Shown: in pieces, positions 41,178 through 50,053 of the stretch
Layout of the letters: every line of letters starts with the position of its first letter
Position numbering within the stretch: position 1 is the first letter of the stretch
DNA from: Negaprion brevirostris
Lineage: Eukaryota
DNA: 64,000 nt
Assembly: GCA_030324005.1 (NCBI GenBank)
Contig: JARDVH010000042.1
Coordinates: 47,509,987-47,573,986, forward strand
Direction of reading: 5' to 3'
Notes under the pieces: generated by a model
Seen by the model: only the letters and a program-made list of their open reading frames with translations
What the model was told of the DNA's origin: nothing
Database searches by the model: none
Made by a program: the position numbers and the translations under genes

Positions 41178-41446
41178 TCAAAGAATATAATTGCAAGACT
41201 GGGTCTGCAGCAGGTGGTGAAGGAACCAATAAGAGAAAATAACATACTTGACCTCATCCTTATCAATCTGCCAGCTGCAGATGCGTCCGACTATGAAAGT
41301 ATCAGTAAGAGTGACCACCACACAGTTCTTGTGAAGACGAAGTCCCATCTTCACATTGAGAATAACCTCCATTGTGTTGTATGGCACTATCACCATGCTA
41401 AACGGAACAGACTTCAAACCAATCTAGCAACTCAAGACTGGGCATC

Positions 41447-42375
41447 TGTAGTTGAGAATTTTGATTAATTCTAAATACCCAATATGTGGATAATTATCAN
41501 NNNNNNNNNNNNNNNNNNNNNNNNNNNNNNNNNNNNNNNNNNNNNNNNNNNNNNNNNNNNNNNNNNNNNNNNNNNNNNNNNNNNNNNNNNNNNNNNNNNA
41601 TGTGGATAATTATCAGCTAATGTTTCAATATGTGGTTTGAGAATAATACAAAATATTTAGGTAACGTCTTAATAATGTTATTAAGATGTTACCTAACATC
41701 TTAGGTAAGATGTTACCTAAGATGTTAGGTAACATCTTACAAATGTATTTGTAACATGCCAGTAAAATGGAAGATATATTCATGAAAGATATCAGCACAA
41801 GCCATACACAAATTATGTAACAAAGTAAATTACCAGGCCAAATAAAGGTGTTTTTTGGTATTAGAGTTGGTTTAAACTGGTTAGAGAAATGCTGAATCAT
41901 AAGAAGGCATTTTTGGGAGAGACCTACCGTAACACGAACAGATGAATGACAGATCAATATTTGAAGGTATCTAAATATGATTAATTGAAGGACATGCCAT
42001 TGTTAGATTGACAGAACAGTGAATGAATGAAAGTGCTGTTAATTAAGTGCTGGGCTGAAAAATCTGACAACGAAAACTACAACCAATTCTACTCTTTGGC
42101 ATGAAATTGGAGATCTTTTGTGAAAGCCTGCTAGCTCATTAGCTGTGTCGGTGGAACTACTGATCTCCCATTTTGGCCAAAATGAGATTTGTCTTGTCTT
42201 AATTGTATGTTTGTCTGAATATTGTTAATTTGTAATGTTTTTGATTCTAACATACCAATGTTTTAATAAAACTAGCTTAAGAATTTCATTGAACCGAATA
42301 AACTTTCTTTTGCCTTTGTGAAATTAAATGTGTAATGAAAAGATTTAGTCTTTAAATTAATCAGGCCACCTAAAA
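41447..42375 (+). repeat. 5' LTR (includes a 100-N gap; last ~15 nt missing)
   Basis: Colinear with 48680-49410 from tgtagttgagaatt to aatcaggccacctaaaa. Confidence 0.95.
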
Positions 42376-42839
42376 GATACAGGATGATCTTGGAGCTGAC
42401 GGTCGAGTGAACACTTCCCATAGAATGGTGAGTACATACTTTATATTGCTCACTTTTTTTAGTAGAGGGGGAAGCACTCTGAATCACTGGATCTGTTAGC
42501 CATCTGGACCTCTTGTGGGTGAAAAAGGCAAAAAAAAATTTTTTTAAATTGACACAGAAGTGTGGATCGGGATAGCAACTTGTCCACATACAGTAGGTTC
42601 TGCAAGGACGTGCTAATTATATAGAGTTTTAAAAGTACTGGCGCAAAAGTATAGGTCGGAATAGCAACTTACTCACATACAGCAGGTTCAACAAGGACAT
42701 GCTGATTATATAATGAAGGGCGCGTAAAACAGGGAACTAAGATAAAGAGAATTAGTTTCGCTGAGACAGTGGTGCAACAATGCCACGCTCTTACTAATTA
42801 AAACAGACCATTCAAAAATACTGGACAATTAAATGGTAG

Positions 42840-44292
42840 TCAAAAGATGGATAAGTTATAAAATATAGAAGGTATAACTTAAAGAAAAAGAGAAATAAGA
42901 GTTAAATGGTAATTTAAAAATGCAGAACTTGTAAAAAGGCTATAACTAAAAAGAAGTCTTTTTTTAAAAAAAATGAGTTTAGAAAGTTCCAAGGTCAAAA
43001 AATGCTTTCTGTGTAAACACTGTATATTGCCAAAGATTTCTGTAAACAAGTCAGGTTTGAGACAAGCAGAAAGTTAATCCATTCAGTCCTACACAGGATG
43101 AATCTTTGTGTTTCAAAATTTGCAGTAAGTAATATGAATTCTTAATCTAAATCAAAATATAATAGGAGAGGGAGAGAATGTCTCGTGGAAAGCACACAAA
43201 AGAGAGTGGGTGGGGAAGTGTGAAGTTTACATTTGCCCCTATTGGACATTTTGTGATAACAGCGCCAACTAAATTAGGGCTATTCAACAANNNNNNNNNN
43301 NNNNNNNNNNNNNNNNNNNNNNNNNNNNNNNNNNNNNNNNNNNNNNNNNNNNNNNNNNNNNNNNNNNNNNNNNNNNNNNNNNNNNNNNNNCACTCCCACT
43401 TTTCGCTGCCGGGCCACTTCATCCACTTATTGCAGCCCAGGAGCGATGTGGCAGGGGCACATTTTTCAAATTTCTTTTGACCGTGCTTCACAGTTCAAAG
43501 GTCTGATCGGAGCTGCAGCATTTCAGGCATGATAAGCCCTGCCCACAGCGCAAGTCAGACCCTCAGTTCTTTATTCAGGCCAGGTGCGTATGGGGGCACC
43601 TGAAAACAGTTTTCCAAGTCAGATCCAAACTGTGCCCAGATTCAGCACTTAGGATCAAAATGGTAAAATTGGGCCCATTGTGTTTTAAAAATTTGCAGCA
43701 ATAAATTTGAATTGTTAATTCAAATCACAATATAAAAAGGAAGGAGGGAGAATGTTTAATGAAAATTACACAATTTGGGTGGGTAAGTGTGAAGTTTACA
43801 TTTGCCTTTTGGATATTTCGTGATAACAGCACCAACTAAATTAGGGCTAATCAACAATGGCAATGACCTAACAGCATTTTGATTAGATTGTGAGGAGTGG
43901 AAGTTTAAAATCAGCAAACTAATTATGAGAATGAGATAAGTAGTCCAAAACACAGAGTACATTTAGGTATAAATTTTAAATATGTGAAAGTTGAAAATCA
44001 CAACAGATATGAAATGGGCTCAAAAGAGACTTAATTCAACAGAATAAATAAACATTGAAAGAGGTAAACAGGTTGATTAATAGACATTAGAAAGCCCATA
44101 TCACTAACATAGGAAGAATGTGTTCAAGCAAGCTACTACAACGATGGTATTTGAATTGAAGAATGAATAATCAAAATAAATTACTACCTGGAATCAAATT
44201 GAAAGGTTTGATTTCTGTTTCAACGATTTTATTATGTTATAGAAATCAGTTTTACAACAGAGAAACTTCGTAAATTGTTAACTGCAAAATGA
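42840..44292 (+). pseudogene. gag: Probable gag remnant, assigned by position only
   Basis: Lies between leader and protease; A-rich, many stops; no capsid motif or CCHC knuckle recognised. Confidence 0.4.
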
Positions 44293-44580
44293 CAATTGGC
44301 TCCCCAAGAGTCTGATGGTGATATGGATTTCCGGATGTATGTAGAGACAGTGCTAGAAGGACAGAATTGTATTAAGTTAATTGATACTAGAACAACTATA
44401 CCACCAACAGACTTGAATTTACTAACCACTGATCAAACAATAGAATAACATGGAGTTGCTGGAGGAGTTAAAGTCACACTGCTCTGTATACCAACAATTA
44501 AAAAAAACATTTTCAAATCTGAATGTGAAAAAATAAAAAAGGAAGCTTCCTGGGGATAGAGTTACTGTCTAGTTAGGAGT
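44293..44580 (+). pseudogene. pro: Retroviral aspartic protease remnant
   Basis: LIDTRTT (44377-44397, degenerate LxDTGAT), I..GVAG flap, FLGIELL after a frameshift (LLGRD-like). Confidence 0.85.
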
Positions 44581-44779
44581 GATAATTGATGCCAGAACAG
44601 GAAACATCAGATGGCACCATATATTCAAACACAATAAATAGGGAAAAAGGAAATGTTGTAGCATTTCGAGGGTCGCAGCATTTCAAACAGATCGGGAAAA
44701 GGGATCAATCTGGAAAAAAATGGCTGCACAATGCCCTTGAATTTGAGCTAGAAATTAACAAGATCGTGAAAGTTTAAAT

Positions 44780-45400
44780 GTCCACTAGAAAAGATTCAGG
44801 GAGAAGTTGAAGCTGTTAAACGCATTATCACACAATTGGGAAAACAAGGAGTAGTGACAAAGACAGTGTCTTCTACTAATTCACTTATATGGCCAATTAA
44901 AAAAAAACAGATGGAAGTTATAGGTTAATTGTGGATTACACATTTCTAAACAGATATGCAACATGGGCACACTCAATAGTTGTAAATCCAGCCAGCAATC
45001 TAAACACAATTGGGATAGATCAAATGATTTTTATTATATTAGATGCGGCCAATGGATTTTGGCCTATTTCAATAGCAAAAGAGCATCAGTACAAATTTGT
45101 CTTCATAGCGGGAAATCAACAATACACTTGGACTCGTCTATCACAAAAGTTTCACAATAGTCCAACCATTTTTCACAAACATAATGGCACAAATACTCGA
45201 GCCTATTAAATGTGCAGGAACCACCATTCTACAATATGTAAATGATGTTTTGATTGCTTCACAAAGCAGGAAAATAATTCCAGAAGATTGAAAGAAGGTT
45301 TTACACAACCACACATAGTGAAAGGAATGAGGCAAGTGTTAGGATTGTTCCAATTATTGTAGGAGTTTTGTGGAAGATGACGCAATACTAGCAAAACCAC
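44780..45400 (+). pseudogene. pol: Reverse transcriptase remnant
   Basis: NSLIWPIKK/DGSYRLIVDY..LN, ILDAANGFW, QYTWTRLSQKFHNSPTIFH, ILQYVNDVLIA (YVND 45235-45246). Confidence 0.95.
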
Positions 45401-45469
45401 TGCAAGATTCGATCAACGGAGAAAGGCTTAGTAGAGAAAAACAATAGATTGGAAAGACAAGGAAATACA

Positions 45470-46150
45470 GGCTTTTACTGACATAAAATCAGCCTTAGTT
45501 AAAGTTCCAGCATTAGGATTACCAAATCTCAGTAAACCATTTCACATTTTTTGTCAAGAAAGAGATGGAATACAAACAACTATAGTCACCCAGAAACATG
45601 GATATAAATTGAGACCAATAGGTTATTATTCAGCACAATTAGATTCAGTTTCTAGAGGAATGCATAGATGCATAAGAGCATTAGCTTGCACCTCTTGGGC
45701 CATAACTGTGTCTGAACCAATCACACTGATGGGAAGAATAATCCTTCATAGTCCACACAGCATTGTACAATTGTTAGAAGCTGAAGACTGAAAGGACTAT
45801 CAGATGGAAGGAGATCAAAATGGGAGGCTAATCTCTTGCCAGGGGATAAGCATGTAGAAATCAGTAAGGATGTGAGAGATAACCCAGCTGGGGGGCTCAT
45901 AGTACTGGGAACTGAGCATGAATGTGTATCTGAAGTCAACAAAGAAATTAGTGAAGGCATATTAAAAGAACCATTGTCAGGGAAAGATGTGATTAATCTG
46001 TATGTAGATGGATGCAAGAAAAACATAGATAGTGCACCACGTACTGAATGGGCAATAGTAAATGAGGAAGGAACAATAGTTGCAGGAAAACAAATTCCAG
46101 GAGAGTCAGCATAAGTAGCAGAATTGATAGCTCTAATTAGAGTTTTAACA
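45470..46150 (+). pseudogene. pol: Tether/connection domain and N-terminal half of RNase H
   Basis: PALGLPNLSKPFHIF, RPIGYYSAQLDSVSRGM..CIRALA, LYVDG, SA*VAELIAL. Confidence 0.92.
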
Positions 46151-46159
46151 TGGAGACAA

Positions 46160-46960
46160 GAGAAAACTTACAAACGGACTTTACACAGCTATTACTAAGG
46201 AAGAAAGGGAAAAGTTAATGATTATTGTTCAATTCACTCAATGGGTAGAACTCCCATGTAAAGATGCTACAGCCAAAACTGTGGCTTTGATATTAGCCCA
46301 TGAAATAATATCACAATGGAGAATACCATTACAATTGGACTCAGATCAGGGAACTCACTTCTCTGGGAGAATGCTGTGAGAAGCATGTCGTATATTTGGG
46401 ATTAAACAGCAATTTTATTCACCATATCATCCACAGAGCTCAGGAATGGTAGAACGAATGAACAGAACATTGAAAAATAGTTTGGCTAAACCCATTTTAG
46501 AAGAAGAAAATAATTGGATGCAAGCTTTACCTGCAATTCTATTAAGACAAAGAGCCACTCCATCTCGAGGAACAGGATTAACTCCCTTTGAGCTGATGAC
46601 GGGTAGAGAAATGTATCTCCCAGAAGACGTTATCACAGGAGGAGTGGAGTTAATAAATGGAAAAGAAGCAGTCTATCAATCTTGAGAGTTTTAATAACCT
46701 GATTACGTTCCTATTAAAAAAGTAGCCATTCAATAACAATATAAAGATTGGATAAAATTAGCTGAGAAAGAAAATCTATATTTACCAACTGCAGGATGTA
46801 GGTTATCGGTACAATTAATGACTGAAAAAAAGGAATTAAGCACTAGACGGGAGGGGCCATTTGAAATAATCATTGCAGGAGAAACATGTGCTTTGGTTGA
46901 TGAAAAACATGGTCCTAGATGGAGACACTGGACACAGCTAAAACCTTACCCAAAGGATTA
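46160..46960 (+). pseudogene. pol: Integrase core and C-terminal domain; N-terminal zinc finger absent
   Basis: LQTDFTQ, LDSDQGTHF (~46335), PYHPQSSGMVERMNRTLK, TGLTPFELMTGR, EGPFEI, WRHWTQLKP. Confidence 0.95.
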
Positions 46961-47049
46961 AGTAGGAAAAAGAATCTGGATAAATTTATATAAAAATGTT
47001 TTAGACTTTTTAGTCTAATCAGATGGTACCGTAAAGCAATCCCCTAGAA

Positions 47050-48538
47050 AATGTTTAAATTTATGATTATTGATTCTAATTGTTTGGCCTTAGGGCCTCA
47101 TTGTGTGTAAAATTGCAGAATAGTAAGTACGCAAAAAAAATCAACCATCCATTGAAGAAAGAAAACATCAGTGAATAACAAGCTCGAACAATCTTTGGAC
47201 AAGGAACAAAAGCAGAGCGTGGTTAAAATAAGTACATTACTGTTATTGCCATAAACACAAATTGAGTGATAACACATGATAAAAAATATATTACATCTTG
47301 TAATAATATGTATACTTTGTATAGTGCAAGTAGTTATCAGGAGTTTAACAGAAACATTTATCTGTATTTGGTGTACACTTATGCTAGAACAGCTGATCTT
47401 CCTAAATGTTGGGTACATACTCAGCTACCAATTAATGCAGAGAAGAGGTTTCCTTTGCGGTCAATCCCTTTAAGGTGGGAGGAATTAATAATATAGGATC
47501 AATTAACCCAATTGTTCAGGAAACCAAGAGGAAGGATAATGGGATTTACAAAGAAGTGTGAAAGTGTGGATTTTTTACTTGAATAGACGCTCACCTGTTT
47601 TCAATACAGCCAAACGAGCATCTAATTTGATTCTAATAGATACAGGATTAGAAGAACAAGAAATCTAATGCATCAAAGTGATCAGGGAAGAATAGATATT
47701 GGGATTAATAAATTAAATCTACACCATCGACGTCAGGAGCAAGACTTGCTTAAACTCACTGAAGGATGATCACATGTGCAACGTTCAGTATACCCAACAC
47801 TTAATGGAACTTATTGGATTTGTGGAAACAAAGCTTACCCATGGCTGCAAAGGTTGGAAAGGAGCTTGTTACTTAGAATACGTAGTTCCACAATTTTACC
47901 ACTTTGATCAATTATCAGAGGAAATTACCAGATGTCGACATACTGCAGTGGGCATAGACTATTTATTTGGAATAATGGTGCCAGGATATTCACAAGTAAG
48001 ACTGAAAATGGAATTGGAAAATATTGCTTATCTTGGAAAGGTAGCTAGTGACATGGTTACTGCTTTATCACAGATCAATGATGAAGTGGTAGCAATGCGT
48101 ACAGTTGTGTTACAGAATGGAATGATGTTGGACTTCATTTTTGCAGCAAGAGGAAGAACATGCACTTAGATTGGATTGAAATACTGCACCTACATATCAG
48201 ATATTTTGGAGAATAACACCAATCTGGTAACTCGCATTCGGAAAGAGGTCAAGAAGTTTGAAAAACCAGGGCCATTCTCGCTGGAGAAATGGACAACAGG
48301 ATAGGTCGGAATTTTGGGAAAGAATATTTAATCAGAGCTATGTTTTTTTCTACTGATGATTATTGCGATCATAATGCTACTTAAATGTTGTTGCTCAAGC
48401 ACAAGCCAGACTGTTGCAAGAGTAGCATCGATCAAGGAAAAGAAGAAAGAAATACCAATGACTTCAGCTCCTTTAGATGCTTCAACTTATGATAATGAAT
48501 GCACTAGGGTTTTTTTTAAAACAAGAACTTTTCATTAA
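47050..48538 (+). pseudogene. env: Gamma-type envelope remnant (SU plus TM)
   Basis: CWVH (CxxC-like), GTYWICGNKAYPWL/KGWKGACYL, ISD-like VLQNGMMLDFIFAARGR, CT*IGLKYCTYI (CX6CC-like, from 48161), hydrophobic anchor then KCCC. Confidence 0.93.
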
Positions 48539-48670
48539 TAAATAATCAGTTAAAGATGCATTATCACATTGATTATAAAGGAAATACTTAAGCAGGATAG
48601 GGTAGATTACATTGTTAGAATTTTTTGACACAATTTTGGCCTTGTATTGCTGTTAGCCAATATGGCCAAC

Positions 48671-48678
48671 AGGGAGAA
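48671..48678 (+). promoter_or_regulatory. Short polypurine tract
   Basis: agggagaa just before the 3' LTR start (TG at 48680). Confidence 0.65.
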
Positions 48679-48679
48679 T

Positions 48680-49425
48680 TGATGTTGAGAATTCTGATTA
48701 ATTTTAAATGTCCAACATCAGCATATGTGGTTTGAGAATAATACAAAATATTTAAGTAACATCTTAATAATGTCTCTAAGAAATGTATTTGTAACATGCC
48801 AGTAAAATGAAAGTTATATTCATGAAAGATATCAGCACAAATCAGACACAAATTATGCAACAAAATATGCTGGGTGATAATACCAAAAGATAAAGGTGTT
48901 TTTTGGTATTACAGCTGGTTTAAACTGGTTAGAGAAATGCTGAGTCATAAGAAGGCATTTTTGGGAGAGACCTTCCGTAAAACAGACAGACGAATGACAG
49001 ATCAATATTTGAAGGTATCAAAATATGATTAACTGAAGGATATGCCATTGTTAGATTGACAGAATAGTGAATGAATGAAAGTGCTGTTAATTAAGTGCTG
49101 GGCTGAAAAATCTGATAATGAAAACTATAACCAATTCTGCTCTTTGCAGAAATCAGAGATCTTCTGTGAAAACCTGCTAGCTCATTAGCTGTGTGGATCC
49201 ATTGATTTCCCATTTTGGCCAAAATGAAATTTGTCTTTCTTAATTATATGTTTGTCTGAATATTGTTAATTTGTAATGTTTTTGATTCTAACATGTCAAT
49301 GTTTTAATAAAACTAGTTCAAGAATTTAATTGAATAAAGTTTTTTTGCCTTTGTGAAATGAAATGTTTAATGAAAAGATTTAGTCTTTAAATTAATCAGG
49401 CCACCTAAAATAATTACCCACAACA
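48680..49425 (+). repeat. 3' LTR (746 bp)
   Basis: tgatgttgagaatt...cccacaaca; AATAAA near 49306 and 49333; followed by GCATC. Confidence 0.97.
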
Positions 49426-50053
49426 GCATCCATGAGGTGCTGTGGGCCATCAACAGCAGTGGAATTGTACTCCAGCACAATTTGCAGCCTCATGGCCTGG
49501 CATATCCCCCATTTCAATCATTATCAACAAGCCAGGGGACCAACCATGGTTCAATGGAGAGTGCAGGGGGTCTTGCCAGGAGCAGCACCAGGCATATCTG
49601 AAAATGAGATGTCAGCTGGTGAAGCTACTGTACAGGACTACTTGTGTGCCAAATGGCAAAAACAGCAAATTTAGATCGAAGCGATTCTACAACCAATGAA
49701 TTGGATCAAAGCTTTGCAGTCCTTCCACATCCAGTTGAGGATGGCGATGGACAATTAAACAACTCACTGGAGGAGGAGGCTCCACAAATATCCCCATCCT
49801 TAATAATGGAGGAGTCCAGCACATCAGTGCAAAACATAAGGTTGAAGTATTTGCAGCAATTTTCAGCCAGAGGTAATGAGTTCATGATCTATCTCGGCCT
49901 CCTCTCAGATGTCAGTCTTCAGCCAATTCGATTCTCTCCATTTGATATCAAGANNNNNNNNNNNNNNNNNNNNNNNNNNNNNNNNNNNNNNNNNNNNNNN
50001 NNNNNNNNNNNNNNNNNNNNNNNNNNNNNNNNNNNNNNNNNNNNNNNNNNNNN

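Follow-up and report, generated by a model that had tools for sequence, protein, structure and literature searches.

Does a shark provirus with two long terminal repeats (LTRs), a target-site duplication and recognizable pol and env remnants represent a complete retrovirus that decayed where it had inserted, or had it already lost its coding capacity before it arrived? The question is raised by an element of Negaprion brevirostris at positions 41447-49425 of a 64,000-nucleotide stretch, hereafter the window (contig JARDVH010000042.1 of assembly GCA_030324005.1, positions 47,509,987 to 47,573,986); all features described below lie on its forward strand, and GCATC stands at either side of the provirus. 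The original prediction, made from the letters of the window, described a complete endogenous retrovirus (ERV) with a reverse transcriptase (RT) resembling those of snakehead retrovirus (SnRV) and spumaviruses. Both LTRs and the 5-bp duplication were borne out, but the complete architecture was not: gag is absent, RT is short by ~128 nt, a further ~637 nt are gone, most of the primer site is missing, and every gene is broken by stops or frameshifts. We propose with considerable, though not full, confidence that this is a decayed provirus of a multicopy family with a replaced gag, a deletion in RT and stops in protease and env, and that it was likely packaged, reverse-transcribed and integrated by the proteins of a related helper virus. 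Membership in this gag-less, RT-deleted and defective family is what the earlier description overlooked.

The lesions of the window copy recur in its relatives. The copies compared were the 20 closest (one set took 19 of 30 loci and one earlier locus, a second took 20 of 30), and the junction of the RT deletion is identical in 13 of them, window included. A stop in the protease is common to 13 of 15 copies, and three stops in the Env transmembrane subunit (TM) are common to most (7/8, 6/9 and 5/8). A second, 720-nt deletion across tether and RNase H has a clear junction in 13 of the 20, an altered one in two and an unreadable one in another, and is absent from the window and three other copies. 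Two copies carry the second deletion without the first, the window carries the first without the second, and all four combinations are seen, for which recombination is the simplest reading. Divergence among 19 family copies is even across codon positions 1, 2 and 3 (RT 0.160/0.154/0.157; integrase 0.151/0.143/0.157; TM 0.155/0.166/0.152), and comparison of the family with 12 distant relatives yields a third-position excess of about double (RT 0.25/0.18/0.46). The shared lesions and even codon positions together imply that the spreading genome was already non-coding, and because the lesions are common across family copies, spread likely proceeded via the proteins of another virus.

Since identical lesion junctions occur in separate insertions, the lesions are older than integration, which argues directly against the alternative that the window holds a once autonomous, complete SnRV-like provirus (clade Huo, class III) that decayed in place. 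Two LTRs, a 5-bp duplication and an NGFW motif in common with SnRV would suit that history; the absence of gag does not, and neither do the phylogenetic trees described below. We regard it as improbable, and the 'decayed in place' reading is largely refuted. A different objection is that the shared lesions reflect host segmental duplication or gene conversion of one dead provirus rather than mobilization in trans. Some copies are indeed tandem or rearranged (C194, C84, C115, C163), a neutral codon pattern suits any neutral copying, and conversion could also yield the four deletion combinations. Yet the flanks of proviral copies are unlike one another (none of 55 pairs upstream and none of 10 pairs downstream match), the copies are spread over many contigs, and a second full provirus of the family has its own 5-bp duplication, matching at four of five letters, all of which makes host copying very improbable. 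As an observation in its own right, tandem or internally duplicated family proviruses occur at L083 (C163), L037 (C194), L137 (C115) and L139/L140 (C84), and they include an LTR with internal sequence on both sides.

Several points nevertheless weigh against mobilization by a helper. A search for intact copies returned only decayed relatives, with no helper carrying open frames among the 150 scored RT matches of 667 candidates, and the helper virus is inferred for that reason. Frames near RT matches that seemed open over 1095-2740 aa proved to be runs of N in assembly gaps and not coding helpers. A 4-nt microhomology at the RT deletion might promote its repeated origin. Testing for recombination by substitutions gave no information (integrase has 8 diagnostic sites; 4 vs 3), leaving the four deletion combinations as the whole of the case for it.

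The directly observed parts of the helper explanation are the lesions themselves, the fact that separate insertions have them in common, the 5-bp duplication and the neutral divergence. Beyond these, the passenger RNA would have kept only its cis-acting signals (LTRs, a tRNA-Ser primer site, the polypurine tract and the leader), and template switching between co-packaged genomes may have produced the mixed deletions. The parent would have been a simple retrovirus of gag-UGA-pro-pol-env organization, its Pol presumably made by stop-codon readthrough and its entry into cells probably mediated by a gamma-type Env.

The replacement of gag is the most peculiar of the shared lesions. Downstream of the leader (42386-42970; 69-85% match to sister copies), the gag position (42970-44236) holds a degenerate zinc-knuckle remnant near 42990 and then a non-coding segment, S (~43056-44250), which is broken by an assembly gap, by a nested repeat (43391-43677) and by a duplication of 178 sites (84% identity). 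The nested repeat is found in 7 of 201 stored loci and also on contigs of other organisms. Between the leader and the protease of the window we found no gag homology and no intact zinc knuckle; horn-shark Gag as query found matches among distant relatives in the genome and none in the window, the natural gag-pro frame of a relative matches the window only from 44236 on, and tblastx of the gag position matched none of 12 distant loci while matching the one family member tested. Across 15 copies, segment S has many stops in all six frames and no consistently open frame on either strand. It matched no Pfam family in 21 frames (lone match E 0.097), no Rfam family and no stored protein under E 0.05, and its predicted fold is not unusual (z 0.12). 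Comparisons gave no support to the idea that it is a decayed pro-RT region. Gag has been replaced by a non-coding segment.

Segment S also occurs, ~70-80% alike, in a larger set of 228 candidates; at 22 of 30 such loci retroviral pol or gag lies within 1.5 kb on the same strand, and many S segments run straight into the RT thumb. Separately, loci L160, L162-L164, L167-L169 and L172-L201 form a larger, older defective set in which S follows the gag zinc knuckles and passes at once into the RT thumb; protease and the RT palm are missing, and the S end comes in several variants.

The last gag codons and an in-frame TGA (44290-44292), followed by CAA TTG, occupy 44237-44292. The TGA before the protease is in frame in 10 of 12 close copies (TAA in one, TGG in one), mostly then with CAA TTG, and two more distant relatives have a sense codon in its place (L011/L041 and L014/L043). 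In L043 the frame is open from its zinc knuckle into the protease. The TGA with its CAA TTG is close to the type I readthrough signal, UAG CAA UUA; junctions with UGA have been described in retroviruses of fish and frogs (PMC13517186). No stable structure was found 3' of the gag stop in the window copy (z 0.84).

Pol survives in pieces, and the prediction of all pol domains plus env holds for the tether, the start of RNase H, the integrase core and the Env TM, but not for the C-terminal half of RNase H or the integrase zinc domain, which are missing. The protease remnant (44293-44600) has an altered catalytic motif and no Pfam match in addition to its shared stop. The frameshifted RT (44760-45430) has lost ~40 nt near 44806 and ~128 nt at 45261/45262, after YxDD; its motifs read as originally quoted, including YVND where sister copies have YVDD. 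The tether, or connection domain (45435-45790), resembles that of murine leukemia virus (MLV; E 2.6e-18) and has no foamy or Ty3 match at E<10, confirming the suggestion of a gamma/epsilon-like tether. The N-terminal half of RNase H (45785-46155) is weak in the window (E 0.27) and clear in the relative L039 (E 1.2e-9), and after it ~637 nt are gone, comprising the rest of RNase H and the integrase zinc domain; a broken integrase core and C-terminal part follow (46157-46961). Word-index protein searches with the RT and TM pieces gave no matches, and neither did a viral-contig search. The env remnant (47050-48538, start approximate) has CWVH in its surface subunit, an immunosuppressive domain, an altered CX6CC and a membrane anchor, where Env of sister copies has CWVC, the immunosuppressive domain and CX6CC. 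Its TM matches syncytin-1 (E 5.6e-6), and by its motifs Env is classed as gamma type. A tether with a separate RNase H, and a gamma-type TM after integrase, agree with the earlier view that this is a true retrovirus and not a Ty3/gypsy element.

The ends of the element are those of an ordinary integration. The left target-site duplication (41442-41446) lies inside a high-copy host repeat, which we take to be long interspersed element (LINE)-like, and the right copy is at 49426-49430. Uninterrupted copies of the host repeat connect both flanks with a 5-letter overlap in four of four runs, as expected of an empty site. The 5' LTR (41447-42375) starts with TG, contains an assembly gap and lacks its last 15 nt; the 3' LTR (48680-49425; 746 nt) runs from TG to CA and is preceded by the polypurine tract with a 3-nt spacer (48671-48679). 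By hand counts without shuffled control, restricted to elements whose ends are neither gapped nor altered, the 5-bp register gave five perfect matches, five at 4/5, five at 3/5 and four at two or fewer among 19 elements with both ends readable, so that 10 of 19 match at four or five letters, and the 4-bp register, the usual one in gamma-like ERVs, gave no perfect match among the 19. A primer-binding-site remnant (42376-42385) is left in the window, which lost ~25 nt there. Seven sister copies, counted in the same way, have the site 3 nt past the LTR, and the best of them is complementary, by eye, at 17 of 18 letters to the genome's tRNA-Ser(GCT) gene.

The element contains two assembly gaps of 100 N, at 41500-41599 and from 43291, and its architecture might in part be an artefact of joining different copies across them. 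The location of 41600-43290 between the two gaps is a further point against our reading, and the duplicated piece of segment S, at 84%, is alike to near the between-copy level. Set against this, the target duplication matches at both outer ends, and copies free of gaps show both the gag replacement and the RT deletion. The two LTRs are also each other's best match by identity (89% vs at most 88% for others) in an LTR search that gave 289 candidates, of which 40 were scored, at 78-89% identity besides self. Finally, contigs from three other organisms span window-specific junctions at ~96-97% identity, and one spans the junction of 3' LTR and host, so that the insertion is likely common to related species. 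An assembly artefact of this kind seems to us most improbable.

The two LTRs differ at 63 of 679 aligned sites (~91% alike; Kimura two-parameter distance 0.088-0.100), which corresponds to 44-72 million years if rates of 1e-9 to 7e-10 per site and year are assumed, and to ~200-230 million years at 2.2e-10, the rate from Han 2015 (PMC4422223). The insertion age is a loose estimate, because the result depends on the assumed rate.

Where the parent lineage belongs was addressed with trees built from hand-picked rows out of ~300 stored proteins (60 for RT, 36 for tether, 31 for integrase and 34 for RT plus tether, the last under the C20 model). SnRV Pol was identified as P0014 by five of five short motifs and WEHV1 as P0028, and the class I, gamma, ERV-L, loki-like and gypsy labels were assigned by motif and by position in the tree. 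With gypsy as outgroup, RT falls among the retroviruses. The window falls with genome relatives and horn-shark Pol (98/93; 99/94), and a horn-shark protein was also the closest to the natural RT frame of a relative among 1.84 billion representatives searched. This shark clade has class I plus a gar-type group as its sister (93/88 for RT; 95/93 for RT plus tether) and lies outside the 100/99 class I clade in both trees, its NGFW standing where class I has DLxxAFF; the integrase tree places it in a 97-supported set with class I, and support for the class I side in the tether tree is 83. SnRV sits on a separate branch in all four trees, and the loki-like and ERV-L rows fall apart from the shark lineage. 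With groups picked after the trees were seen, approximately unbiased (AU) tests rejected grouping with the epsilonretrovirus WEHV1 (p 7e-7), so the nesting within epsilon viruses that was looked for is absent, as well as placement within an SnRV/ERV-L/frog group (p 0.021) and a wide Huo (p 0.005).

Against this placement, and in favor of the SnRV-like alternative, SnRV alone as partner was not rejected (p 0.155), and the closest published ERV, rh_ty_ERV4 of the whale shark, stands at the end of clade Huo in a 2018 tree as far as text order tells (PMC6001957). The window RT row fills only 24-37% of the tree columns, and the tree rows include no foamy sequence. In PDB, RT and integrase both match foamy proteins best, though no SnRV, epsilon or gamma integrase match was there to compete with them. 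NGFW is present in loki-like and gypsy rows too, and is therefore likely ancestral and not diagnostic; the 5-bp duplication is present as predicted but is likewise a shared trait rather than a mark of class III. The SnRV/spuma-like label for RT is weakly supported. On present sequence comparisons, the lineage likely lies beside the epsilon and gamma retroviruses, outside them and away from SnRV, and the parent lineage, together with rh_ty_ERV4 and horn-shark Pol, would have kept ancestral traits there. As a side observation, P0198, a Pol of 1166 aa whose cluster has 3937 members from NCBI contigs, falls with a gar ERV next to class I; of nine Pols compared with the window by tblastn, it had the top summed score.

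Comparison with described viruses supports novelty at family level, within a lineage that had already been sampled. In the search for a high-identity match to a described family, rh_ty_ERV4 came closest: it is identical to the window copy by eye at 53 of 91 RT residues and alike in gag end, TGA, protease start and NGFW, but it is a different family, which in its published form has gag zinc knuckles and an unbroken RT and is listed in clade Huo (Xu et al. 2018, PMC6001957), unlike the class I-side position of the shark lineage in our trees. Gag-Pol XP_067870587.1 (P0001) of the horn shark, Heterodontus francisci, belongs to the same clade in the RT and RT-plus-tether trees (47% identity over the window RT piece) and has its own gag with two zinc knuckles that find no match in the window. 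SnRV and CmiERV lineage I (Han 2015, PMC4422223) share NGFW and YVDD with the shark family; SnRV is 42% identical to the window over the RT piece and 25% over thumb-tether, and its in-frame gag/pol stop is UAG (PMC13517186) where the shark family has UGA. XtERV-S of Xenopus resembles the family in its tRNA-Ser primer, in-frame TGA, 5-bp duplication, gamma-like TM with immunosuppressive domain and CX6CC, and many internally deleted copies, but differs in an ERV-L-type Pol with YIDD, a dUTPase and the lack of a zinc knuckle (PMC8278194). Mouse ETn/MusD and IAP I-delta-1 are non-coding or deleted elements multiplied by the proteins of coding relatives, as we propose here; they are class II, env-less and still active, whereas the shark family is class I-side, retains an env remnant, is long dead and has no helper that we found (PMC1331978).

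The family is also distinct from two other groups. Lokiretroviruses have a paramyxovirus-fusion-protein-like Env and an RT sister to other retroviruses (PMC7947760), where we find a gamma-type TM and a separate branch. Relatives of the family have zinc knuckles, an in-frame gag-pro and a gamma-type TM. Foamy viruses, by contrast, have a gag without zinc knuckle, a separate pol frame and a foamy-type Env. The foamy gag, pol frame and Env are tabulated in PMC8278194. ERVs with gamma-type Env are reported from six cartilaginous fish, including some with class III SnRV-related Pol (bioRxiv 2021.11.23.469661). The literature consulted further included PMC4977317, PMC10435555 and bioRxiv 2023.10.17.562709. 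Among the papers listed by literature searches, none describes this family or a non-autonomous shark ERV family; Repbase and Dfam were outside that search, and the supplements of bioRxiv 2021.11.23.469661 may include the family.

The element thus probably belongs to a new family, long dead and made up of non-coding passengers, in a retrovirus lineage of sharks that had been sampled before. The family is an addition to the retrovirus tree at a node of poor resolution, where calls based on NGFW and 5-bp duplications mislead because these are likely ancestral traits. Non-coding passengers also account for much of the lineage's genome copy number, which means that counts of shark ERVs exaggerate the number of past infections. 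Neither mechanism is without precedent, and the surprise is smaller for it. For the class I-side placement and for segment S we entertain, tentatively and with more doubt than belief, the joint possibility that the shark lineage is sister to all of class I plus the gar-type group, so that Huo would be no clade and sharks would preserve the original condition of class I (NGFW, a 5-bp duplication, a Ser primer, readthrough of UGA and a gamma-type Env), and that S might be a captured cis element, recombined between two passenger families and favoring their spread, as a fish parallel of ETn.

Some features of the LTRs stand apart from these points. The 5' LTR alone contains, at 41682-41739, a perfect 27-nt inverted repeat with a 4-nt loop, which stems from a local expansion absent in the 3' LTR and whose matches to miRNA hairpins were below threshold. 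At the solo LTR L058, the five flanking letters at the two sides are reverse complements and not direct repeats. LTRs of sister copies have an imperfect 14-nt terminal inverted repeat, and their ends show symmetric 3-nt spacers, between polypurine tract and TG and between CA and primer site, where the usual retroviral spacer is two nucleotides.

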